Shown: positions 1,764 to 40,724 of the stretch, piece after piece | How the letters are laid out: each line of letters begins with the position of its first letter | How positions within the stretch are numbered: position 1 is the stretch's first letter | Origin: an uncultured Candidatus Saccharibacteria bacterium | Lineage (GTDB): Bacteria; Patescibacteriota; Minisyncoccia; Minisyncoccales; Staskawiczbacteraceae | Assembly: GCA_964599285.1 (NCBI GenBank) | Contig: CAZREI010000003.1 | Span: 3,595 to 67,594, forward strand | Direction of reading: 5' to 3' | DNA length: 64,000 nucleotides | The notes under the pieces: model-generated | Databases searched by the model: none | What the model saw: the letters and a program-made list of their open reading frames with translations, nothing else | What the model was told of the DNA's origin: nothing | Made by a program: the position numbers and the translations under genes

Positions 1764-3989
1764 ATGGCAAAAAATGGGAAGCCTCAAAAAGAAAACGGCA
1801 AAAACGGTAGCCAAAAAGATAAAAAGAAGGAATATCTTTTGACTTTGCGCACTAAAAAGTGGATCAAGGGCACACTGATGTTTTTGGTGGCAATCATCAT
1901 TGCCCTTTCTTTTTTGGATAAGGCTGGGCTGGCAGGGCAGTGGCTGGTGTGGCTACTCAAAAACTTGCTGGGCGATTCGCGCATTACCATTACCACCATT
2001 ATTTTGTCGCTGTTTGCCGCCGGATTTGTAACCGTAAAAGCGCATCATAAAAAAGTAAAAGTGTTAGCGATTGTGCTGGGGGTTTGTATTGCGGTGGTAG
2101 GGGTATCAGGCATTTCTTCAAACCAAAATTTAAACATGGCTCACACCGGCTTGGTGGGCTGGGCGGCCAAACTGCTGGTCAACGGCTTTGGGCTTTTAGT
2201 TTCCAATATTATTTTCGGGGCGATTATGCTGATTGCCCTGTTTATTTTCTTGCAATTTATCTGGCACGAATTTCCTCCCGAAGAAGCCGAAAAAAAACTG
2301 GCGCCGATGCTCAAAAGTTCCGATGCGCCCAATTTCAGGATAAAAGGAGTGGAAGAGCCAAAACCCGAACAAAAACTGCCGGCCAAAGTGTCGCTGTTTA
2401 AAAATCCTATGGGAAACCAAAAGCAAAATGTGCCGGTGGTGGTTAATGCTTCTCAGCCGACCCAAAAAGGTAAATATGCTCTGCCGCCCATTGACCTGTT
2501 AAACAAAAACGAAACGGCGCCAACCAGCGGCAACATTAAAGAAAATTCGCTGATCATTAAAAAAACGTTGGAAAATTTTGGCATCCCCGTGGAAATGGCG
2601 GAAGTCAACGTTGGTCCGGCCGTAACCCAATATGCTTTCAAACCGGCTGAAGGCGTCAAGCTTTCAAAAATCACCACGCTGTCAAATAATTTGGCGCTGG
2701 CGCTGGCGGCTCACCCCATAAGAATAGAAGCGCCCATTCCCGGCAAGTCACTGGTAGGAATTGAAGTGCCCAATAAAGTGCGAGCCACGGTGGTTTTGCG
2801 TAATTTAATTACCGACGGCGCCTACCAAAACGATCCGGCTAATTTATTAATCGCCCTTGGCAAAGATGTTTCCGGAAACCCCATTTACACCGACTTAGCC
2901 GAAATGCCTCACATGCTGGTGGCTGGCGCAACCGGAACCGGTAAAACCATCTTTTTAAACTCGCTCATTTTAAGTTTGCTGTACAAAAGTACGCCGGAAA
3001 ACTTGCGCATGATTATGGTGGACCCCAAGCGCGTGGAATTTCAAAATTACAACGACATTCCGCATTTGCTATGTCCGGTCATTTACGACGCGCCAAAAAC
3101 CATTAACGCTTTGCAGTGGCTGGCGCGCGAAATGGAACGGCGCTTTGAGGTATTTTCAGAAATTCCTACGCGTAACATTAAAAGTTACAATTCCAATAAA
3201 TCGGTCATTGCCTCCGGTTCGCAGTTGCCTTACATTGTGCTGGTAGTTGACGAACTGGCCGACTTGATGGCCGCCAAAGGCAAGGAACTGGAAGCCGGCA
3301 TTGTAAGGCTGGCGCAGATGGCTCGGGCCACCGGAATCCACTTGGTGCTGGCAACACAAAGGCCATCGGTGGAAGTCATCACGGGATTGATCAAGGCCAA
3401 CATCAGCTCGCGTATTAGTTTTCAGGTGGCATCGCAAATTGACTCGCGCACGGTTATTGATACGTCGGGCGCGGAAAAGCTTTTGGGCATGGGAGATATG
3501 CTGTTTTTGTCTTCCAAGAGTTCCAAAATTACCCGTATCCAAGGTCCGTACATTTCTGAAAAAGAAGTTAAAAAAGTTACCGACTGGTCAGCCGAGCAGG
3601 CAAAGGTAGTGGAGGATCCCCAATCAATGCTCATTGCCAGCTTAAAAGATTCCCTGGAAGCACAGCAACAAGGTGATGAAAAATCAGGTGGAGCCGATGT
3701 GTTTTTTGGCGACGACGATCCGTTATTTGAAGATGTAAAAAGGATTGTGCTAGAAACCAAAAAAGCATCGGCGTCGTTTTTACAAAGAAGATTGCGCATC
3801 GGCTATTCGCGAGCCGCGCGCCTCATTGACATGCTGGAAGATAAAGGATTTGTCGGCCCGGCCGATGGCGCCAAACCTAGGGAAGTATACGAAACTCCAA
3901 CCCAAGCAAGGACAGCAGATTTGTCAGGCGGCACGGGAATGGACGAGTCGGAGGAGGTACCGAAGGAGGAAGGGTGGGAGAAAGTGTAG
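1764..3989 (+). CDS. ftsK: DNA translocase FtsK/SpoIIIE
   Basis: N-terminal TM helices are followed by Walker A GATGTGKT, VVDELADLM (Walker B) and a C-terminal gamma winged helix (FLQRRLRIGYSRAARLIDMLE). Confidence 0.95.
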   Translation: MAKNGKPQKENGKNGSQKDKKKEYLLTLRTKKWIKGTLMFLVAIIIALSFLDKAGLAGQWLVWLLKNLLGDSRITITTIILSLFAAGFVTVKAHHKKVKVLAIVLGVCIAVVGVSGISSNQNLNMAHTGLVGWAAKLLVNGFGLLVSNIIFGAIMLIALFIFLQFIWHEFPPEEAEKKLAPMLKSSDAPNFRIKGVEEPKPEQKLPAKVSLFKNPMGNQKQNVPVVVNASQPTQKGKYALPPIDLLNKNETAPTSGNIKENSLIIKKTLENFGIPVEMAEVNVGPAVTQYAFKPAEGVKLSKITTLSNNLALALAAHPIRIEAPIPGKSLVGIEVPNKVRATVVLRNLITDGAYQNDPANLLIALGKDVSGNPIYTDLAEMPHMLVAGATGTGKTIFLNSLILSLLYKSTPENLRMIMVDPKRVEFQNYNDIPHLLCPVIYDAPKTINALQWLAREMERRFEVFSEIPTRNIKSYNSNKSVIASGSQLPYIVLVVDELADLMAAKGKELEAGIVRLAQMARATGIHLVLATQRPSVEVITGLIKANISSRISFQVASQIDSRTVIDTSGAEKLLGMGDMLFLSSKSSKITRIQGPYISEKEVKKVTDWSAEQAKVVEDPQSMLIASLKDSLEAQQQGDEKSGGADVFFGDDDPLFEDVKRIVLETKKASASFLQRRLRIGYSRAARLIDMLEDKGFVGPADGAKPREVYETPTQARTADLSGGTGMDESEEVPKEEGWEKV

Positions 3990-4013
3990 CCGCGCGCGCC
4001 GCGGCGCGCGCGG
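3990..4013. terminator. 24-bp perfect GC palindrome directly after the ftsK stop
   Basis: CCGCGCGCGCCGCGGCGCGCGCGG equals its own reverse complement. No T-tract follows, so terminator function is uncertain. Confidence 0.35.
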
Positions 4014-4051: not shown

Positions 4052-4114
4052 GTCATTGCGGCCAGCTGAGCTGGCCAGACCCGCTAAGCGGGTCTGGCCG
4101 AAGAGCGGCAATCT
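4052..4114 (+). repeat. CAT-core repeat, long variant with internal hairpins
   Basis: GTCATTGCG...GCGGCAATCT encloses GGCCAGCTGAGCTGGCC and GGCCAGACCCGCTAAGCGGGTCTGGCC. It is preceded by CCAATTTCC word repeats (4017..4045). Confidence 0.8.
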
Positions 4115-4505
4115 TAAAATATGGAAAACAGTATCATTCCAAGCGAGAGGATAGTCAATAAAATATACATCATTCGTGGTAGAAAGGTTATGATCGATCG
4201 CGATCTATCCGAGCTTTATGGAGTTAAGACAAAAGTTTTGAATCAGGCGGTAAAAAGAAATATGAAACGGTTTCCTGAAGATTTTATGTTTAAGCTTGAT
4301 AAAGCAGAGTCTAAAAACTTGAGGTCACAAATTGTGACTTCAAGTTGGGGTGGTACAAGGAAAGAAATATTTGTCTTTACTGAGCAAGGCGTGGCGATGC
4401 TATCAAGTGTGCTCAATAGTGACCGTGCAATACAAGTGAACATTCAAATTATCAGGACGTTTACCAAAGTCAGAGAATTATTAGCTACCAACGAAGCCTT
4501 ATATA

Positions 4506-4674
4506 CTTTGAATTACGAAATGCTTTTTGAAAGGCGGGTTTCGGGTCTTTTCTCCAAATTTTGGCTATAAATTCGCTATAAATATTTTACGTAGCTTGCT
4601 ACGTAAAATATTTCTATCAAATTTCTATCTCAAAATTTGAAGAAAATACCTCGAAAGCATTTCGTAATTCAAAG
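4506..4674 (+). mobile_element. LH (long-hairpin, MITE-like) element, copy A
   Basis: Perfect 18-bp terminal inverted repeats CTTTGAATTACGAAATGC / GCATTTCGTAATTCAAAG. It carries the conserved core TTGGCTATAAATTCGC..apex hairpin..TTCTATCAAATTTCTATCTCAAAA. It has no coding capacity. Confidence 0.8.
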
Positions 4675-4766
4675 TTAGAAAGATAATGGAAATGGAAAAA
4701 AGGTACGACAGTAGTATTAAGGATATCTTTAATAAGCTGGGACTTTTGCAGTCAGATAAAAAGAAA

Positions 4767-4790
4767 CCTAAAAATAAAATAGGATTTTAA
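4767..4790 (+). repeat. 24-bp direct repeat, left copy (3' end of ORF6N including the stop codon)
   Basis: CCTAAAAATAAAATAGGATTTTAA recurs as CCCAAAAATAAAATAGGATTTTAA at 6594..6617 (23/24 identical). Confidence 0.85.
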
Positions 4791-4806: not shown

Positions 4807-6558
4807 ATGCCAGGAGAACCAAGCGAACAGTTTAATCAAGATCGGGAGCCTGATGCAAAAATTGTTCCAGATGAAATTAAATTGTCAAAAGGACGCAATA
4901 CACAGATCATCAAACCAGAAGAGATGCAAGCAGAGATGGAAATACCCTATTCTGCTGAAGGTCGTAGTGAAGTGCGCGAAGAAGACTTATCTCCAGAGAT
5001 TATTGAAAAGATAATGGGAAAAGTTCAAGATATTGATGAGTATGGGACGGCTTACCATGTGATGACTAGTGCAGAAGATTTGCCTGGTTTTAGTAGAGAT
5101 AGAGACGAGAGGCCATGGAAAGAACGTCTGGAGGACATTTTAAAACATGGTTTACTTGGCACTGTTCACGAAAGAACAGGTACGGTTAGTAAGGTTAATT
5201 CGGAGAAATGGGTACGAGGTGTCAAGAAGGAAAAACGGGGAGAGGTGATGTTCAATATTATTGGACGAGAATTTCACGAAAGTGATTTGAGCGAAAGAGA
5301 ACGTGAAGATGAGCGCAAAGCAGGAAAAACGTGGATTGAGACAGGAACTTTTATGTGGCAAGATAGTAATAAGATTGCTATTATTTTTGATGTATCAAAA
5401 TTTAAAGAAGTTGAACCAAGAAAAGGAGAAGATTTCAAATTACCAAAACCAAAAACATTTCATGTCGATTCTAAAAAAACAAAAATGAATGAAAGAGGAG
5501 AATTAATGGCCCAATCTGATTATGGCTTTTCGCTTTATCCTCGGGTTGCGCCCAAATTATTTAAAGGATTAGTTTTTAAAGCTACGCGTAAGTATAGCGA
5601 AAAAGAAAGAGAAAAATATTTAAAAACCTGGGGCGACACTCCTAATCATAGATATGCTTTGGAAATGGCCCAAGTAGAAGAAGATGATCCTCAAAAGTTA
5701 GAAGAAAGGGCTGAAGAAATAGTTTTATTAATGAAAAAAGTTTATGAAAATAAACCAGATATTCTGATTCCTGTTTACGATGTTCGTGGTAACTTATATT
5801 GGCCTGAAAAGTTAAGTCACACAGAAATACAAAAATTGAAGTCAAAACCAATTGATACTGCCGATAATTTAAAACAGGAAAAGAAAGAAAGGTATAGTCG
5901 TACAGTTCTTGAAATTGGGTCCGGCTCACTGAAGACACCTTGGCTGGAAGATAGAAATCTTAACGATTATGCTACTGCCCATATTATTTGTACCGATATA
6001 CAACACAAAACTATAAAAGATGCCGCGAAAGAAACTGATAAAAAATTAAAAGAATTAGGCAATAAATTTATTGGCAAATTTGACTACATGGCTGCTGATG
6101 GAAAACATCTTCCATTTGACGAAAATTCAATGGATGAAATATACTTAGCAAATGTTTTGGGAGATCCAAAAACTGCCGAAAAACAAAAAATTATTAGTGA
6201 AGCCACAAGAGTTCTTGCCATTAATGGAGATCTTATTATTGTGGAGTGGGCGACCCCCGAGTATGCAATCGGTGTTCGTAGTTCGGATATTCACAAGGAG
6301 ACAGTTTGGAAAAATGCCTTAGGTTCATTTGTTGATCAATTAAAGAAGATGGGCTTGAAGGTAAAAACGATAGAATCACCAGATTATAGATCTGATTTAT
6401 CCATGAGAGGAGTTATGGAACCAGAGAAACTTAAAGAGATATTTAATAAGAGAGAAGAATATCTTAGTAATTTTCCTTACACCAAAAAGTTTATTGGTGG
6501 CTTAGGAATACCAGAAGTAGCTGAGGCACACCCCTTTATCCTTGTGCTTAAAAAGTAA
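4807..6558 (+). CDS. 583-aa protein: unknown charged N-terminal region plus C-terminal class I SAM-dependent methyltransferase fold
   Basis: The C-terminal third carries VLEIGSGS (motif I-like), an acidic loop ICTD, and DGKHLPFDENSMDEIYLANVL..VLAINGDLIIVEW (Methyltransf_11-like). I did not recognise the N-terminal roughly 370 aa. Confidence 0.6.
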   Translation: MPGEPSEQFNQDREPDAKIVPDEIKLSKGRNTQIIKPEEMQAEMEIPYSAEGRSEVREEDLSPEIIEKIMGKVQDIDEYGTAYHVMTSAEDLPGFSRDRDERPWKERLEDILKHGLLGTVHERTGTVSKVNSEKWVRGVKKEKRGEVMFNIIGREFHESDLSEREREDERKAGKTWIETGTFMWQDSNKIAIIFDVSKFKEVEPRKGEDFKLPKPKTFHVDSKKTKMNERGELMAQSDYGFSLYPRVAPKLFKGLVFKATRKYSEKEREKYLKTWGDTPNHRYALEMAQVEEDDPQKLEERAEEIVLLMKKVYENKPDILIPVYDVRGNLYWPEKLSHTEIQKLKSKPIDTADNLKQEKKERYSRTVLEIGSGSLKTPWLEDRNLNDYATAHIICTDIQHKTIKDAAKETDKKLKELGNKFIGKFDYMAADGKHLPFDENSMDEIYLANVLGDPKTAEKQKIISEATRVLAINGDLIIVEWATPEYAIGVRSSDIHKETVWKNALGSFVDQLKKMGLKVKTIESPDYRSDLSMRGVMEPEKLKEIFNKREEYLSNFPYTKKFIGGLGIPEVAEAHPFILVLKK

Positions 6559-7083: not shown

Positions 7084-8127
7084 ATGGCAAAAGAAAAAAA
7101 AGGACCTGCCGTCGCTAAAGCTATGGCGGGCGAGGGAAAAAAGGAAAACAAGGCGTTAAATTCTGCTATTGACGATATCAAGGCTCGGTTTGGCGAGGGG
7201 GCTATTATGAAACTTTCCGAAACCAACAAAGTCAACGTGGACGCCATTCCTACCGGATCTATTGCCATGGATGCGGCGCTTGGGGTGGGCGGAATGCCGC
7301 GAGGCCGAATTATTGAAATTTACGGAGCGGAAAGTTCCGGAAAAACTACGTTGTCTTTGCATATTGTATCTGAAGCCCAAAAAAAGGGAGGCGTGTGTGC
7401 TTACATCGACGCGGAGCACGCCATGGACCCGGACTATGCCAAACGCCTTGGCGTCAACACCGATGAACTGTTAATTTCCCAGCCAGATTCGGGCGAGCAT
7501 GCTTTGCAAATTGTGGAGACATTAGTTAATACCAAAAATGTGGATGTGATTGTGGTGGATTCGGTGGCGGCGCTAACTCCCCAGCGGGAAATAGAAGGCG
7601 AAATTGGTGACCAACACATGGGATTGCAGGCGCGCATGATGTCGCAGGCTTGTCGTAAATTATCGGCCATTGCCGCCAAGTCAAACACGATGATTATTTT
7701 TATCAACCAGACGCGCATGAAAATTGGCATGGTTTTTGGGAACCCAGAAACGACGCCCGGGGGATTGGCATTAAAATTTTATGCTTCTGTCAGGGTAAAC
7801 TTAGCTCGGACGGCGCAGATAAAATCGGGAGATGAAATTATTGGCAACCGAGTGAAAGCCAAGGTGGTCAAAAACAAAGTGGCCGCACCCTTTAGGATTG
7901 CCGAGTTTGATATTTATTATAACGAGGGAATTTCAAAGTCGGGAGACGCGCTGCGGGCGGGATTGGCCAGTGGTGCAATTAAGCAAAACGGCAACACTTT
8001 TATGTTTGGCGGCGAAAAAATGGGCGTGGGGACCGAAGTGGCAAAGCAATATTTAAAAGAGCATCCCGAAACCATAGAAAAAATAAAAGTATCTGCTGTT
8101 GCCGGCACGGCGGTGGAGGAGTCATAA
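7084..8127 (+). CDS. recA: recombinase RecA
   Basis: Carries GPESSGKTT-type Walker A (GAESSGKTT), IVVDSVAAL, and the loop L2 region [22 protein letters not shown]. Confidence 0.97.
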
Positions 8128-8129
8128 CT

Positions 8130-8307
8130 TTACCGTGAATTACGAAATGGATATATAGGAAACATATTTCTTGTCTTTTCCCCAATTTTTGGCTATAAAT
8201 TCGCAATAATTTTTATGCTTATGCGTGGCTAAGCATAAAAATTCTATCGAATTTCTATCTCAAAAATTGGGAAAAATCCAAAGAAACCATTTAGTAATTC
8301 ACGGTAA
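8130..8307 (+). mobile_element. LH element, copy B
   Basis: TIR TTACCGTGAATTACGAAATGG / CCATTTAGTAATTCACGGTAA (1 mismatch). It has the same core as copy A with apex hairpin variant TTTTTATGCTTATGCGTGGCTAAGCATAAAAA. It starts 3 nt after the recA stop. Confidence 0.8.
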
Positions 8308-8437
8308 TTTCAGAATAAAAAACGGTTTCCTGGCAACGCGAGCCGTTTTTTATTTCCTGAACTTTGAATCGCCAAATGCTCTTTTCAAAGAGGATTTGAT
8401 GATTTAAAGTTCTTGAAAAATATTGTACTATACACCA

Positions 8438-17876: not shown

Positions 17877-18113
17877 CCTTGAATTACGAAATGCCCGCTT
17901 AAGAAGACTCTTTTTGTCTTTTCCGAGACGGGGCGAATTGGCTGCGGCCAATTGCGCCTCGCGTCTTGACCATCAACGTTGCGATAATCGGCAAAACTTT
18001 CGCCTCCAAATTCGCAATAAATATTTTACGTAGCTTGCTACGTAAAATATTTCTATCAAATTTCTATCTCAAAATTTAGGGAAAATCCTAAAAAGGCATT
18101 TCGTAATTCAAGG
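17877..18113 (+). mobile_element. LH element, copy C (carries a nested insertion of about 80 bp)
   Basis: Perfect 19-bp TIR CCTTGAATTACGAAATGCC / GGCATTTCGTAATTCAAGG. The apex hairpin is identical to copy A. An extra hairpin-rich segment (about 17925..18005) replaces part of the left core. Confidence 0.8.
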
Positions 18114-27363: not shown

Positions 27364-27972
27364 ATGGAAGAAAATAAAGGCATAAAAGTAACCAACGCTG
27401 TCTATAGGATTTTGGATTGCCTGCCAGATTCTGACCCCTTAAAAAATAAGGCCAAAGAGAAAGCGTTGGCTATTTTGGAAAACCTGACGCTGGTTTTCAG
27501 TGCCCAAGACTGGGTTTCTTTTCAAAAGGAAAAAGCAGCGGCCAGCGTCATGGATGACATTGGTATTTTGCAAGGCTACCTTCAAGTCGGGCGAGACCAG
27601 GGCTGGATAGATGCCATGAACTTTTTGATTATTACCAAAGAGTACCAGTCTATTAAAAACAGCATTGTGCCGCCAAGAGGACTGATAAAGCAAAGCTTGC
27701 AGATTGCCCAGGCAACGGTTAAAGAGGCGCCAAGGGTTGCCCCAGCAATTAGCACGCAAGCCGGATATATGCAAAGTGAAAAATCTTCAAAGCGGCAGCG
27801 GAAAATTTTAGAGATACTGCAAAAAAGAGAAAAAACTCAAGTTTCAGATATCATAAAAGAGTTGCCCAATATCACCAAAAGAACGATCAGGAGAGATTTA
27901 GATGATTTGCTAAAGAGCGGTAAAGTTGCAAGGATGGGGGAATGGAATCAGATTTTTTACCAAATAAAGTAG
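27364..27972 (+). CDS. helical-domain protein with C-terminal DeoR-type winged HTH
   Basis: The C-terminal RQRKILEILQKREKTQVSDIIKELPNITKRTIRRDLDDLLKSGKV matches the DeoR-family HTH pattern. Confidence 0.6.
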   Translation: MEENKGIKVTNAVYRILDCLPDSDPLKNKAKEKALAILENLTLVFSAQDWVSFQKEKAAASVMDDIGILQGYLQVGRDQGWIDAMNFLIITKEYQSIKNSIVPPRGLIKQSLQIAQATVKEAPRVAPAISTQAGYMQSEKSSKRQRKILEILQKREKTQVSDIIKELPNITKRTIRRDLDDLLKSGKVARMGEWNQIFYQIK

Positions 27973-27973
27973 G

Positions 27974-28148
27974 CACTTTGAATCCCGAAACGGACAATAA
28001 AAAGAATATTTCTTGTCTTCCCCCAATTTTTGGCTATAAATTCGCTACAATTTTTCGGCGGAGCCGTTGGCTAAGCCGAAAAATTCTATCAAATTTCTAT
28101 CTCAAAAATTGGGGGAAATCCAAAGAAACCATTTCGGGATTCAAAGTG
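27974..28148 (+). mobile_element. LH element, copy D
   Basis: TIR CACTTTGAATCCCGAAACGG / CCATTTCGGGATTCAAAGTG. TTA->CCC on the left is compensated by TAA->GGG on the right. Apex variant TTTTTCGGCGGAGCCGTTGGCTAAGCCGAAAAA. It starts 2 nt after the upstream stop. Confidence 0.8.
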
Positions 28149-28218: not shown

Positions 28219-28295
28219 GAGTCAGTTTTCCTAACGTAATCCTATTGGTTATTGTTGCTTTTATTGCTTATTTATGGTATAGTTTAAGATTATTT

Positions 28296-28799
28296 ATGGA
28301 TTATAAACGGGAACAATTTAGCCTTATTTACGATCAATATATTGAAAAAATATATCGGTTTGTATACTTAAAGGTAAATTCAGAAGAAGTAGCACAGGAC
28401 ATTACTTCTAAGGTATTCTTAAAGGGTTGGGAATCCTACCAAAAACAGCCTGAAATTAAAAATCCTGGAGCTTTTTTATACCAGATTGCCAGGAATTCAG
28501 TCATAGACCATTACCGAGAAAAGGGTAGGACAAAAATAGTTTCTCCAGAAAGCGTCCAAGAAATGGCTGACAAAACCAATATATTTGAAAGGGCTGTTTT
28601 AAATGCGGACATTGAAGCTATAAAGTCTGCTATTTTTAAGCTTAAGAAAGAGCATCAGGATGTCCTTATCTGGTACTATTTGGAGGATATGTCCGCCGAG
28701 CAAATATCGGACATTCTGGAAAAACCAGCTGGTACGGTAAGGGTTATGATCCATCGGGGGCTGGAAGCATTGAAAAATGAACTAAATCAGCAATCCTAA
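28296..28799 (+). CDS. ECF-type RNA polymerase sigma factor (sigma-70 family)
   Basis: Region 2 (IYRFVYLKVNSEEVAQDITSKVFLKGW) and region 4 HTH (MSAEQISDILEKPAGTVRVMIHRGLEALK). The start is taken at ATG 28296. Confidence 0.85.
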   Translation: MDYKREQFSLIYDQYIEKIYRFVYLKVNSEEVAQDITSKVFLKGWESYQKQPEIKNPGAFLYQIARNSVIDHYREKGRTKIVSPESVQEMADKTNIFERAVLNADIEAIKSAIFKLKKEHQDVLIWYYLEDMSAEQISDILEKPAGTVRVMIHRGLEALKNELNQQS

Positions 28800-28994: not shown

Positions 28995-29819
28995 ATGACC
29001 GAGAAAGAACTCATTTCCAAACTCCAGGAACTCAAACAAATCAAACCCAGCAAAAGCTGGGCTCTTTCGGTTAAAATGAGCATTTTGGATACTCCAGCAG
29101 TGCAAGCCAATCCTATGTCCCAGCCAACCGGCCGCTGGGCGTTTTCTGATTCGGTAAAGTTTCTCTACCAAAGAAAAATGGCTTATGCTTTCGCGGCCTT
29201 ATTGCTGGTGATTGCAGGACTGACCAGCGTTATGAACTATACGATTCCAAAACCGGCAACCGTCGCTCAAAACCAGGTCAATGGTTCAAAGCAATCAGCC
29301 TCGGCTTTGGCAGCAGAAGCGGCCTTAAAAAACAGCGTTGAAGCTTTCAAAATGAAATCGCAGAACTTGGCCCAGACCATAAAATATAATCCCAAAAATG
29401 CGCCGGTAGCGATACAAGAAATAAAAGACGCGGCTAAACATTTGACCGACGCGATCCAAAAAAATCCACAATTAGCAAAAACCGTCGCTCTGGATATTAA
29501 CAACAGCAACAAAACTTACTTGGATGTACTGGCTGGTAGCGCGAGAGATGAAGTAAAGCAAGATGTTTCCGATACCCTTGAAAAGACTCTGGTTAAACAG
29601 TTGATCGAGGACGCGAGGAATGAATCCTTAACCCCGGATCGCAAGGCTGTGGTAGATATGGCGGAAACACTTGAGGCAAAGGGTGATTATGCTAATGCAT
29701 TGGTAAATATGTTAGTATTGGAAAATGGCAGTAAACCTTCAGATAGTAAAGAAGATAATAAAGCAACTCCCAGCCCAACAGACAGTCCGGATAACAATAA
29801 CGTAAATGCGCATAATTGA
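28995..29819 (+). CDS. single-pass membrane protein, DUF5667-like / putative anti-sigma partner
   Basis: It lies immediately downstream of the ECF sigma gene. It has a short cytoplasmic N-terminus, one TM helix (AYAFAALLLVIAGLTSV) and a helical alanine/lysine-rich ectodomain. The function is inferred from context. Confidence 0.5.
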   Translation: MTEKELISKLQELKQIKPSKSWALSVKMSILDTPAVQANPMSQPTGRWAFSDSVKFLYQRKMAYAFAALLLVIAGLTSVMNYTIPKPATVAQNQVNGSKQSASALAAEAALKNSVEAFKMKSQNLAQTIKYNPKNAPVAIQEIKDAAKHLTDAIQKNPQLAKTVALDINNSNKTYLDVLAGSARDEVKQDVSDTLEKTLVKQLIEDARNESLTPDRKAVVDMAETLEAKGDYANALVNMLVLENGSKPSDSKEDNKATPSPTDSPDNNNVNAHN

Positions 29820-30082: not shown

Positions 30083-30255
30083 ACCTTGAATTACGAAATG
30101 CTTTCGAGGTATTTTTCCAGAATTTGGAGATAGAAATTTGATAGAATTTTTATGCTTAGCCACGCATAAGCATAAAAATTATAGCGAATTTATAGCCCAA
30201 ATTCTGGAAAAAGACCCGAAAAAAGCATTTAAATGTGCATTTTGTAATTTAAGGT
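30083..30255 (-). mobile_element. LH element, copy E (reverse orientation)
   Basis: TIR ACCTTGAATTACGAAATGC / GCATTTTGTAATTTAAGGT (2 mismatches). The reverse complement of the core matches copy B, including its apex hairpin. It is embedded in a further imperfect inverted repeat of about 32 bp per arm (30049..30290). Confidence 0.75.
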
Positions 30256-37943: not shown

Positions 37944-38666
37944 ATGAAAAAAGGTAACGGCGTAAACGTAGGCATATTGGGACATGGGGAAATTGGCAAA
38001 TCGGTTGCCAAGTTTTATAAAAATCCCAAAATAAAAGATTTAAACAGAGACGACGGCCTTTACGGTGTGGAAATTTTGCATATTTGCATCCCTTATAACG
38101 AAAAATTTATAGATATCGTCAAAAAAGAAATTAAAGAAGTAAAACCAAAGCTGACGATTATTCATTCAACCTTGGCCCCCGGTACCACAAAAAAAATTGG
38201 GGGAATGGTGGTGCATAGCCCCGTAAGAGGAGTGCATCCTTATTTATATGAAGGCATTAAAACGTTTGTTAAATACATTGGTGCTGACGATAAAAAAGCC
38301 GGCCAGATGGCAAAAAAACATTTAGAGAGTCTTGGTATAAAAACGAAATTAGTTTTTCCTTCAAAAACTAGCGAGCTGGCTAAGCTCCTTTGTACTACCT
38401 ATTACGGCGTTTGCATTGCCTGGCATAAAGAAATGAAAAAAATCTGCCAGCAAGAAAAAGTTAACTTTGACGATGTTGTCACGGAGCTTAACAAAACCTA
38501 CAACGAGGGTTATGTGAAGTTGGGTAAAACAAACGTGGTAAGGCCCGTTTTGTATGTGGACGATAAGCCGATCGGCGGACATTGTGTCGTGCCAAACGCC
38601 AAAATCCTCAAAAAATACTACAAGAGCAAGGCTTTTGATTTAATTTTAGAATATGAAAAGGGGTAA
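37944..38666 (+). CDS. short UDP-glucose/GDP-mannose dehydrogenase-family-like NAD-binding protein
   Basis: N-terminal GILGHGEIG (Rossmann), ELAKLLCTTYYGVCIAWHKEM, and a cysteine in IGGHCV that resembles the catalytic GGxC region. The assignment is tentative. Confidence 0.45.
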   Translation: MKKGNGVNVGILGHGEIGKSVAKFYKNPKIKDLNRDDGLYGVEILHICIPYNEKFIDIVKKEIKEVKPKLTIIHSTLAPGTTKKIGGMVVHSPVRGVHPYLYEGIKTFVKYIGADDKKAGQMAKKHLESLGIKTKLVFPSKTSELAKLLCTTYYGVCIAWHKEMKKICQQEKVNFDDVVTELNKTYNEGYVKLGKTNVVRPVLYVDDKPIGGHCVVPNAKILKKYYKSKAFDLILEYEKG

Positions 38667-39618
38667 AACATATTTGGTGACTGGCGGATCGGGATTTATT
38701 GGTTCGCATCTTTGCGAAAGTCTTTTGAGTAAGGGCAATAAGGTTATTTGTTTTGATAATTTAAGTTCCGGAAAAACGGCCAATATTGATAGTCTTAAAA
38801 AGAATGAAAATTTTGTTTTTATCAAAGGGGACGCCAATAAATTAACAGATTTGGAACCAGTTTTTAAGAAAAATAACAGTGACGGGGTATATCACTACGC
38901 GGCGGTGGTGGGAGTGAAAAGAACCTTGGAAAATCCTTTAGCGGTTTTAAAAGATATTGACGGGATAAAAAATGTGTTGGAACTGGCAGTAAAATATGGA
39001 AAACCAAAAGTGGTTTTTGCCTCAAGTTCTGAAGTGTATGGCGAACCCAAAGAATTACCAGAAAGGGAAGATGGGCCCATTGATGCCAAATTACCATACG
39101 CGTCAGTAAAATTGATAGGAGAAAATTTTTGCCAGGCCTATTGGCAAAAACACCATTTAAAAACGTGTTCATTGAGGTTTTTTAATGTGTATGGGTCAAA
39201 ACAGGAAAGCAGTGATTATGGCTTTGTTGTTGGTATTTTTATCAAGCAGGTTTTGGCAGGTTTGAGCCCGACTATTTTTGGAGACGGAAGCCAGACGCGA
39301 GATTTTGTTTACATTAAAGATAATGTAGAAGCTTCAATGCGGGCCATGGAGCAAGATGAGTCCTTGGGCCAGTCCATCAATATAGGGACTGGAAAGTCTC
39401 TTACCATTCTTGATTTGGCGCGCAGGGTTATTGATTGCGCTGGCCAAACGGGAAAGATACAACCAAAGTTTTCCAACCATGACAGAATGGACATAAAACA
39501 CCGATTGCCGGACATCAGTAAAATGACAAAACTTCTTAATTTTCATCCCACAGTATCTTTAGAAGAGGGACTTAAAAAAACCATGGATTACTACCGTGAA
39601 TCACCAAATGGACGGTAA
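38653..39618 (+). CDS. NAD-dependent nucleotide-sugar epimerase/dehydratase (UDP-glucuronate decarboxylase-like)
   Basis: VTGGSGFIGSHL, SSSEVYG and YASVK (YxxxK). The last 8 codons and the stop lie inside LH copy F. Confidence 0.85.
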   Translation: MKRGKTYLVTGGSGFIGSHLCESLLSKGNKVICFDNLSSGKTANIDSLKKNENFVFIKGDANKLTDLEPVFKKNNSDGVYHYAAVVGVKRTLENPLAVLKDIDGIKNVLELAVKYGKPKVVFASSSEVYGEPKELPEREDGPIDAKLPYASVKLIGENFCQAYWQKHHLKTCSLRFFNVYGSKQESSDYGFVVGIFIKQVLAGLSPTIFGDGSQTRDFVYIKDNVEASMRAMEQDESLGQSINIGTGKSLTILDLARRVIDCAGQTGKIQPKFSNHDRMDIKHRLPDISKMTKLLNFHPTVSLEEGLKKTMDYYRESPNGR

Positions 39619-39766
39619 AAAAAATATTTCTTGTCTTTCCCCCAATTTTTGGCTACAAATTCGCTATAATTTTTCGGCGGAGCCGTTGGCTAAGCCGAAA
39701 AATTCTATCAAATTTCTATCTCAAAAATTGAAGAAAATCCAAAGAAACCATTTTGTGATTCACGGT
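39593..39766 (+). mobile_element. LH element, copy F
   Basis: TIR ACCGTGAATCACCAAATGG / CCATTTTGTGATTCACGGT (1 mismatch). The apex hairpin is identical to copy D. It ends 17 nt before the next ATG. Confidence 0.8.
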
Positions 39767-39782
39767 TATTACAAAAAAAGTA

Positions 39783-40724
39783 ATGGATGTCATCATTGTT
39801 TGCCATACGGAATTTGGGTATGTAAAAAATAAAAAAGTGATTGGTGAAAAAAAAGCCGTTTTTGGAACCAGAGACGGCGTTTTAAATTTAATAAAAATCG
39901 CAGAACGATATAGCGCCAAGGTTTCATTTGCGGTATGCCCAGAGGTTGTAGATTATTTTCCTAAGAACATAATTCATGAAGTTGGCTTGCATGTGCATCC
40001 GGGCTGGGAGGAATTTAAAGAGAACGGAATTCCCTTTACCGTTGGCGATCAATATTTACGGGAACACTGCAAGCAATCTTCAATTTCCACGGTGCTTTGG
40101 GATTATTCTTATGACGAGCAGCTTGATATGATAAAAACCGGCAAAGAGTATATTAGCGCGAAGCTTAACGTAATTCCCAAATTTTTTGTTGCCGGCCGCT
40201 GGTGTGTTAACAACGACACGGTAAGGGCTTTAATAGCCAACGATTTTACGCACGACTGTTCGGCGACGGCTCATTCCAAACCCATGCACCATGATTGGTC
40301 GCGACTTCCAAGAATATGCATGCCCTATCATCCCCGTACGGAAGACTACCAAAAAAAAGGAGACTTGCCATTGTTGATGGTTCCGATATCCCAATCCTTT
40401 CCCAGGGGAAATGTAAATCCCGAAGTGGCTCCCATGGTTGGATTGTCGTGGCTGAAAGCCTGCTTCACCGAATACTACCGGCAAGGTGTCCCGTTGTTTC
40501 ATATTTGCCTGCATTCGCCGTCCATGACCGATAGCTATTTTATGTCAGTCATGGATAATTTACTTGGTTTTATTTCCGGCCACCAACATATCAATTTCAA
40601 ATTTGCATCGGAAATTAGAAAATATCCAGATCAGATATATGCAACAAATCTTCTGCCGTACGTGTCTGCCGTTAATTGGAACATTATAAAATCTAAATGG
40701 AAAACACTTTTAAAAATACAATAA
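39783..40724 (+). CDS. hypothetical protein in glycan locus (313 aa)
   Basis: An ORF with His-rich motifs (HTEFG, GLHVHPGW, HSPSM) that could suit a metal-dependent carbohydrate esterase/hydrolase. I did not recognise the family. Confidence 0.5.
   Translation: MDVIIVCHTEFGYVKNKKVIGEKKAVFGTRDGVLNLIKIAERYSAKVSFAVCPEVVDYFPKNIIHEVGLHVHPGWEEFKENGIPFTVGDQYLREHCKQSSISTVLWDYSYDEQLDMIKTGKEYISAKLNVIPKFFVAGRWCVNNDTVRALIANDFTHDCSATAHSKPMHHDWSRLPRICMPYHPRTEDYQKKGDLPLLMVPISQSFPRGNVNPEVAPMVGLSWLKACFTEYYRQGVPLFHICLHSPSMTDSYFMSVMDNLLGFISGHQHINFKFASEIRKYPDQIYATNLLPYVSAVNWNIIKSKWKTLLKIQ

Follow-up and report, generated by a model that had tools for sequence, protein, structure and literature searches.

We describe here an interrupted gene in a 64,000-nucleotide stretch of DNA from an uncultured Candidatus Saccharibacteria bacterium (NCBI GenBank assembly GCA_964599285.1, contig CAZREI010000003.1, positions 3,595 to 67,594 of the forward strand). 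This whole stretch is called the window, and all positions are counted from its first letter. The gene lies between ftsK and recA in a Patescibacteria genome, probably one like those of Candidatus Staskawiczbacteria, and encodes a protein with an ORF6N domain; its reading frame is broken by a 169-bp hairpin-forming repeat, which we refer to as copy c1. A preliminary description, made from the letters alone, had read the arrangement as an ORF6N gene split by a mobile element of a family that it termed LH.

The interrupted ORF6N gene and its empty orthologous sites

The features of the locus are listed here; MITE stands for miniature inverted-repeat transposable element.

4121..4570, forward strand: truncated present-day open reading frame (ORF) of 149 aa, made up of ORF6N residues 1-128 and a 21-residue tail, TLNYEMLFERRVSGLFSKFWL; the tail and the stop codon are element sequence
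4121..4505, forward strand: ancestral ORF6N gene, N-terminal part; codons 1-128 and the first base of codon 129
4499..4505, no strand: left target-site duplicate TTATATA, which fits the target consensus TWWWWWA
4506..4674, forward strand: MITE core, 169 bp, non-coding; termini C..G set by the 7-bp duplications of the family; near-complete hairpin
4506..4526, forward strand: left terminal inverted repeat; its first 18 nt, CTTTGAATTACGAAATGC, are identical to the inverted repeat of autonomous IS982-family elements
4654..4674, reverse strand: right terminal inverted repeat; complements 4506-4526 perfectly
4675..4677, no strand: TTA, read as the right target-site remnant; TTATATA expected, TATA missing
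4678..4790, forward strand: orphaned ORF6N C-terminal part; residues 129-165 and the stop codon, no longer in frame with the start; a 34-aa ORF begins at an internal ATG (4686)

According to the ORF list and its translation, the frame that opens at 4121 enters the repeat at 4506 and ends within it at a TAA stop at 4570, the very coordinates given in the preliminary description. The ORF6N domain of its product, at residues 13-97 and wholly upstream of the insertion, is complete (PF10543 over profile positions 1-86 of 86, 121.6 bits with a cutoff of 27.8, E 1.8e-35). The conserved C-terminal end, ..MEMEKRYDSSIKDIFNKLGLLQSDKKKPKNKIGF*, is encoded by 4686..4790 and can be extended back to 4675, in a frame that differs from that of the N-terminal half, again as had been described. 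Deleting 4506..4674 joins the two halves into an open frame of 166 aa, ..NEALYIRKIMEMEK...

The limits 4506..4674 proposed at the outset coincide exactly with the termini defined by the family to which c1 belongs. The bounding inverted repeats, earlier given as 18 bp and perfect, are indeed perfect and are longer than that, extending over 21 nt within the element (4506-4526 and 4654-4674) and over 22 nt if one flanking base on each side is counted. No match to the c1 inverted-repeat pattern arose by chance in 100 shuffles, and the hairpin folds with -45.8 kcal/mol (z = -11.3). The sole internal ORF of at least 25 aa, a TTG-started frame of 37 codons at 4527-4640, is not regarded as coding. A scan of c1 against Rfam brought nothing to threshold, the only hits being generic long-hairpin plant microRNA precursors well under their gathering scores, and a scan of the element for internal promoters and terminators stayed at chance level.

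Searching databases with the repaired protein returned at least 8000 scored homologues. The best are Patescibacteria proteins of 166-170 aa with 75-80% identity over 98-100% of the query, several of them named Candidatus Staskawiczbacteria. In all 26 of the 26 homologues that we aligned, the repaired protein is colinear through the junction, so the comparison suggested in the preliminary description came out in favour of a single split gene. In each of the 26, however, the junction is one residue shorter, reading NEAL[Q/H/Y]-[R/H/K]K.. where the protein from the 169-bp deletion reads NEALY-I-RK... Neither the truncated protein of 149 aa nor the FtsK product has a database record, and no locus that we fetched, except one contig from the Logan assemblies, matches the window at 85% or more.

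Three loci retain the gene in its uninterrupted form as positional orthologues. In the first (L040) the ORF6N gene is intact, the FtsK encoded upstream is 79% identical to the window FtsK (1764..3989), and the RecA encoded downstream is 89% identical to the window RecA (ORF 7084..8127; tblastn match 7156..8109). In the other two (L043 and L044), an intact ORF6N gene has ftsK directly upstream. When the DNA of the window was aligned with all three, a single unbroken gap of 172 columns appeared and nothing else was disturbed. The ORF6N site in these loci is thus the orthologous empty site, and the net insertion in the window is 172 bp, consisting of the 169-bp element and the TTA at 4675-4677. 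Removing 172 bp yields a 165-aa protein whose junction is equal in length to that of the homologues; the corresponding empty site, reconstructed in silico, joins 4121..4505 to 4678..4790, that is, ..GCCTTATATA to GAAAGATAATGG. Exact excision of 169 bp, which had been proposed to restore the gene, does restore the frame, but only because the leftover piece of the duplication happens to be 3 nt long, and one extra codon stays behind; the ancestral state requires the removal of 172 bp. Removal of 176 bp (core plus 7 bp) was considered as the ancestral state and rejected, as it gives a frameshift and an immediate stop.

Colinearity with the orthologues gives the ancestral sequence as ..GAA GCC TTA TAT AGA AAG ATA ATG.., in which TTATATA ends at what is now the left edge of the element. 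A standard event would predict TTATATAGAAAG on the right flank, and we observe TTAGAAAG. The simplest account of this difference is probably that 7 bp were duplicated on insertion and that TATA, two TA-repeat units, was then lost from the right copy. The same MITE could instead have inserted with an atypically short duplication of 2-3 bp (ATA/TTA with one substitution, or TA with an extra T). Direct repeats of the IS982 family do vary from 2 to 10 bp (PMC7335449), exact duplications are 6 bp long in 12 of the 116 family elements analysed below and shorter still in a few, and each of the two models needs exactly one extra event. Against the short version stand the strong mode at 7 bp (32 exact duplications and 16 with one mismatch), the fact that the left flank is a perfect consensus target of which the right TTA is the exact prefix, with two whole TA units missing, and the mismatch that a 3-bp duplication needs. 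We therefore consider a short duplication possible but unlikely.

A mobile family with IS982-type ends

BLAST and a family hidden Markov model (HMM) located six full-length copies in the window, at 4506, 8133, 17877, 27976, 30084 (reverse strand) and 39594. An interior 20-mer of the element, TTCTATCAAATTTCTATCTC, matches 38 loci in species-representative genomes, often several per genome; 23 of these loci belong to metagenome-assembled genomes (MAGs) of Candidatus Staskawiczbacteria, and most of the others to MAGs labelled Candidatus Saccharibacteria. From the 38 loci we recovered 38 further full-length copies with both flanks, mostly in Staskawiczbacteria MAGs, making 44 copies with the six of the window, and a terminal-repeat scan of metagenomes added at least 120 loci. 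The family sits at non-orthologous sites in many genomes. Among the 44 copies, c1 alone lies clearly in the middle of a gene, the others being found in short spacers close against gene ends.

Two observations concern the interior of the element. The apparently invariant 20-mer was rejected as a functional sequence because its invariance is an ascertainment bias: it occurs in only 5 of 35 metagenome MITEs selected by their inverted repeats, and several MITEs of that selection carry unrelated interiors between the same ends. In the 44 aligned copies the central stem (4578-4615 in c1) differs by paired, compensatory changes (e.g. CGTAGCC/GGCTACG, CGTATGC/GCATACG, CGGGCCC/GGGCAAG, TGTAGC/GCTACA), a pattern that could reflect either selection for the hairpin or palindrome-correcting mutation.

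Target-site duplications document the movement of the family. Exact 7-bp duplications flank 11 of the 44 copies, against 0.26% for mismatched flank pairs. Among the matches listed in our searches, 116 non-redundant elements bounded by the inverted repeats include 32 with exact 7-bp duplications, against a null of 0.39%, as well as 16 with one mismatch in the 7 bp, 12 with exact 6-bp duplications and a few with shorter ones; by class, exact 7-bp duplications occur in 4 of 10 insertion sequence (IS) copies and 3 of 20 mini copies. The target consensus is TWWWWWA. All nine exact duplications that do not start with T and end with A match over the full 7 positions, which sets the duplication length to 7 bp and places the element ends at C..G. 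For the same reason we rejected 'AC' ends combined with a duplication of 5 bp; besides, of 36 elements whose inner 5-mers agree, 32 agree at all 7 positions. An A precedes the terminal C in 94 of the 116 elements, and the duplication analysis gives that A to the target.

The same ends bound a set of larger elements. Twelve elements of 898-1024 bp were found in metagenome contigs among the matches listed, one of them (L089) being a high-coverage contig of 1022 bp that consists of exactly one element. Four of the ~1-kb elements have exact 7-bp duplications (TTGTAGA in L100, TAATTTA in L138, TTACTTT in L145 and TTTTATA in L152). Each carries a single transposase reading frame, intact in ten elements (251-292 aa) and frameshifted in L084 and L145. 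Their inverted repeat of 16-18 bp, CTTTGAATTACGAAATGC, is identical at 18 of 18 positions to both ends of c1 in the comparison with L089, L084, L066, L047 and L049, whereas the interiors are unrelated.

Profile libraries were scored on two representative transposases, those of L089 and L100. The IS982 equivalog NF033520 of NCBIfam matched at 129.9 bits (L089) and 135.3 bits (L100) against a cutoff of 130, over profile positions 4-241 of 243, and Pfam PF13612 (DDE_Tnp_1_3) at E-values of 2e-30 and 8e-34. The motifs H-x-D-S-T, V-A-D-A-G-Y and R-M-x-I-E-x-N-F-R-N-L-K are present. Assigned by motif position, D108, E232 and K239 are invariant in eight full-length copies, and the second D (in VADAGY) is found in seven of the eight, L100 having S. 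A search for relatives returned 1979 transposases at E <= 1e-20, mostly on collapsed contigs of ~1 kb; those with names come from Patescibacteria lineages and are called 'IS982 family transposase' by NCBI.

Two members of this group deserve separate mention. The element at 4597-5596 of L100 has VASAGY in place of VADAGY although its 267-aa ORF is intact and its 7-bp duplication perfect; it may be inactive despite its intact appearance. In NCBI, another transposase (P0152), 72% identical to the Patescibacteria IS982-type enzyme, bears the label 'Nanoarchaeota archaeon', which points to either a binning error between ultra-small cells or spread across domains.

Given the identical ends, we infer that c1 was mobilised in trans by a transposase of the IS982 family. 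The claim that the LH family is or was mobile is borne out by duplications well above chance, by the non-orthologous sites and by 18-bp ends held in common with ~1-kb IS982-family elements; as to its kind, the family consists of MITEs, presumably mobilised by IS982-family elements, and is not a new type of element.

Members of the IS982 family are 845-1282 bp long, with inverted repeats of 11-32 bp, direct repeats of 2-10 bp and a TnpA of 240-326 aa, and 57 of 69 reference members have inverted repeats that start with 5'-AC, five starting with CC (PMC7335449). Our parent elements fall within all of these ranges, with lengths of 898-1024 bp, inverted repeats of 16-18 bp, one ORF of 251-292 aa and direct repeats of 7 bp (sometimes 6). 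They differ in that Patescibacteria are missing from the 12 host groups named in that source (PMC7335449), and the window element itself lacks a transposase.

A close parallel is MITECca01 of the Cardinium endosymbiont, a non-coding multi-copy element of ~240 bp bounded by the inverted repeats of the IS982-family ISCca4, presumed to move in trans with the help of intact parent copies and contributing to pseudogenisation (PMC9769881). The c1 family is likewise short, non-coding, multi-copy and bounded by IS982-family inverted repeats. Unlike MITECca01, which is lineage-specific and retains short parental stretches beside its inverted repeat, the c1 family has only the 18-bp inverted repeat in common with the IS, and it occurs in several species alongside same-end MITEs with unrelated interiors and minis of 33-74 bp. 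The Correia elements (NEMIS) of Neisseria and other bacterial MITEs are hairpin repeats of ~100-170 bp with terminal inverted repeats and target duplications, mostly intergenic near gene ends and occasionally gene-disrupting. Correia elements duplicate TA and have promoter and terminator activities, and to our knowledge no active parent has been identified for them. In the c1 family, by contrast, the duplication is 7 bp, an IS982-type parent can be identified, and promoter and terminator signals are at chance.

Age of the insertion and competing readings

Taken together, our data lead us to conclude, with a probability of about 0.9, that a MITE moved by an IS982-type transposase inserted recently into the ORF6N gene and split it. 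In the proposed course of events, an IS982-family DDE transposase would have recognised the 18-bp ends of c1 in trans and moved the MITE by cut-and-paste into TTATATA, an AT-rich target, duplicating its 7 bp. Later loss of 4 bp (TATA) from the right duplicate would then have reduced the net insertion to 172 bp. A ribosome that begins at the ORF6N start codon would now read 21 codons into the element and stop. In the predicted 149-aa product the ORF6N domain is preserved, but 21 residues encoded by the element take the place of the conserved C-terminus of 37 residues, and the function of the gene has probably been lost or altered.

The orphaned C-terminal fragment has a mean identity of 64.1% to the 26 homologues, compared with 63.1% from homologue to homologue over the same columns. 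It keeps all 12 columns that are conserved at 90% or more and has acquired neither a stop nor a frameshift. This lack of excess divergence indicates that the insertion is recent on the scale of species divergence, in keeping with the preliminary description, which had called it recent because both gene halves were intact. The missing 4 bp of the duplicate indicate, on the other hand, that the insertion is not brand new.

Several points weigh against this conclusion. No empty-site allele was found in the same population, and the best intact homologue is only 80% identical. Copy c1 lacks an exact 7-bp duplication: its flanks, TTATATA and TTAGAAA, agree at 5 of 7 positions, a match with at most two mismatches is expected by chance in ~11-13% of cases, and the 4-bp deletion is therefore an extra assumption. 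As the duplications set them, the ends of the family read 5'-CT or 5'-CC and not the 5'-AC usual in IS982. No autonomous IS copy is present within the 64-kb window, nor was one found in the 38 genome loci. The nearest sister copy of the MITE is 85% identical, so the insertion of c1 cannot be dated by copy divergence. An independent contig across the left junction was sought and not found, leaving the right junction alone independently confirmed.

The insertion might also be tolerated or useful, with the truncated ORF6N protein, or two separately translated pieces, being functional, so that the gene is remodelled and not a pseudogene. The ORF6N domain (residues 13-97) is unaffected, the C-terminal part is undegraded, and the ATG at 4686, which follows AGAAAG, could start a 34-aa C-terminal peptide. 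However, the C-terminus is fused to the domain in all 26 close homologues, and its 12 columns conserved at 90% or more imply that it is needed in cis. The split is seen in no other genome among the at least 8000 homologues, and recency explains the lack of decay equally well. We regard a functional remodelled gene as improbable.

More doubtful still is the idea that the IS982-type ends form a general mobilisation cassette with unrelated captured interiors, some of whose insertions, including c1, are kept as reversible or functional modules. It is drawn from the coexistence of full MITEs, minis of 33-74 bp that consist of inverted repeats only, and copies with nested GC-rich hairpins. If it were true, an insertion might change the C-terminus of a protein, provide a stop codon (as at 39594-39765) or set a stable RNA hairpin at a gene end, and the compensatory changes in the central stem would reflect selection on structure.

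That an assembler misplaced a dispersed repeat into an intact gene is very improbable. In its favour, the element occurs in several copies, and the contig of an independent Logan assembly stops within c1 at 4646. Such a break is as expected for a repeat, and that contig reproduces 4646..7565 (2920 bp) with 100% identity, right junction included. Flanks from one gene abut the exact family-defined termini, with a consensus 7-mer to the left and the prefix of that 7-mer to the right, which is not the pattern of an assembler.

Finally, the intact gene halves, with no decay in the C-terminal part, and the very stable hairpin might suggest that the element is removed after transcription, as an intron-like sequence or by translational bypass, and that full-length ORF6N protein is still made; this is scarcely credible, as no Rfam family reaches threshold for the element, its family is one of DNA transposons, with duplicated targets and a parent that encodes a DDE transposase, nearly all its relatives lie between genes, c1 shows no take-off and landing codon arrangement with an adjacent stop, and 172 nt far exceeds any ribosomal bypass known to us, the gap in T4 gene 60 being 50 nt.

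The mechanism favoured here, trans-mobilisation of a MITE by a DDE transposase, is well known and will hold little surprise for specialists. Our literature search found no paper on MITEs in bacteria of the candidate phyla radiation (CPR), and the c1 family appears new to the literature for CPR/Patescibacteria. The locus offers a MITE insertion of textbook quality, in which the interrupted gene, the empty orthologous sites, the target, the duplication length, the target preference and the IS982-type parent can all be identified. Despite streamlined genomes of ~1 Mb, CPR bacteria carry an active or recently active IS982/MITE system at high density (six copies in 64 kb here), and such elements can inactivate or remodel conserved chromosomal genes. 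The repeats also break short-read assemblies, leading to split or truncated gene calls in CPR MAGs. Knowing the ends (CYTTGAATTACGAAATG) and the 7-bp duplication makes it possible to annotate these elements and to recognise the resulting pseudogenes.

Other copies and neighbouring sequences

The remaining full-length copies in the window are the following.

8133..8304, forward strand: copy c2; begins 5 bp past the recA stop codon
17877..18113, forward strand: copy c3; exact 7-bp duplication AACTATT; nested GC-rich hairpin at 17925-17965
27976..28146, forward strand: copy c4; 3 bp past the stop of ORF 27364..27972
30084..30254, reverse strand: copy c5; exact 7-bp duplication, TTTAATA on the forward strand
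39594..39765, forward strand: copy c6; at the extreme 3' end of an epimerase-like ORF (38653..39618), whose stop codon is now inside the element

A second empty site, for copy c2, was sought in L040, where synteny stops just past recA. Within the interval itself, the window encodes at 4807-6558, between the ORF6N gene and recA, a 583-aa protein with a C-terminal class I methyltransferase domain that is absent from the syntenic L040. That locus in turn has a glyoxalase-family gene between ftsK and the ORF6N gene. These differences show that the ftsK-recA interval is variable among relatives. The spacer between ftsK and the ORF6N gene contains two GC-rich perfect palindromes, at 3990-4013 (CCGCGCGCGCCGCGGCGCGCGCGG) and 4073-4099 (GGCCAGACCCGCT-A-AGCGGGTCTGGCC), in a genome of ~40% GC; neither is followed by a run of T, and they were therefore not scored as terminators.

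Copies c4 and c5, in inverted orientation, enclose two genes, one sigma-70/ECF-like (28245..28799) and the other putatively anti-sigma-like (28995..29819), much as in a composite transposon. Independent insertions are more likely, because an exact 7-bp duplication flanks c5 by itself but not c4.

Copy c6 was considered as a second mid-gene insertion and rejected, as the long fused frame consists of two adjacent genes in the same frame. The last eight codons and the stop of the NAD-dependent epimerase-like gene (38653..39618) are now element sequence. Removing the core and 7 bp restores a TAA stop right after ..KKTMDY, with the ATG of the next gene (ORF 39783..40724) 12 nt further on. A clean duplication of 7 bp is missing around c6, whose two flanks share ATTAC with a shift of 1-2 nt.

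Some of the AT-rich copies contain a nested GC-rich palindromic insertion of ~30-70 bp (e.g. GAGACGGGGCGAATTGGCTGCGGCCAATTGCGCCTCGCGTCT). Examples are c3 (insertion at 17925-17965), a copy in L035 (3747-3945), and copies in L158, L039, L053, L093 and L130. These palindromes may represent a second family of tiny mobile hairpins that targets the interior of the MITE.

At the other extreme are mini elements of 33-74 bp, which comprise the two terminal repeats and a few joining bases. One of ~50 bp lies in the window near 8363-8410, and others are found in L004 (357-403), L011 (2940-2972 and 4020-4067), L034 (561-596), L112 (1188-1260), L116 (1844-1916) and L127 (515-587). With exact 7-bp duplications around three of them, the minis too appear to have transposed. 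An exact match to the interior 20-mer was also found at 4978-4997 of L165 (IMGVR_UViG_3300036766_002181), a contig of 244.7 kb that is classed as viral; the family HMM detects no MITE at that place.

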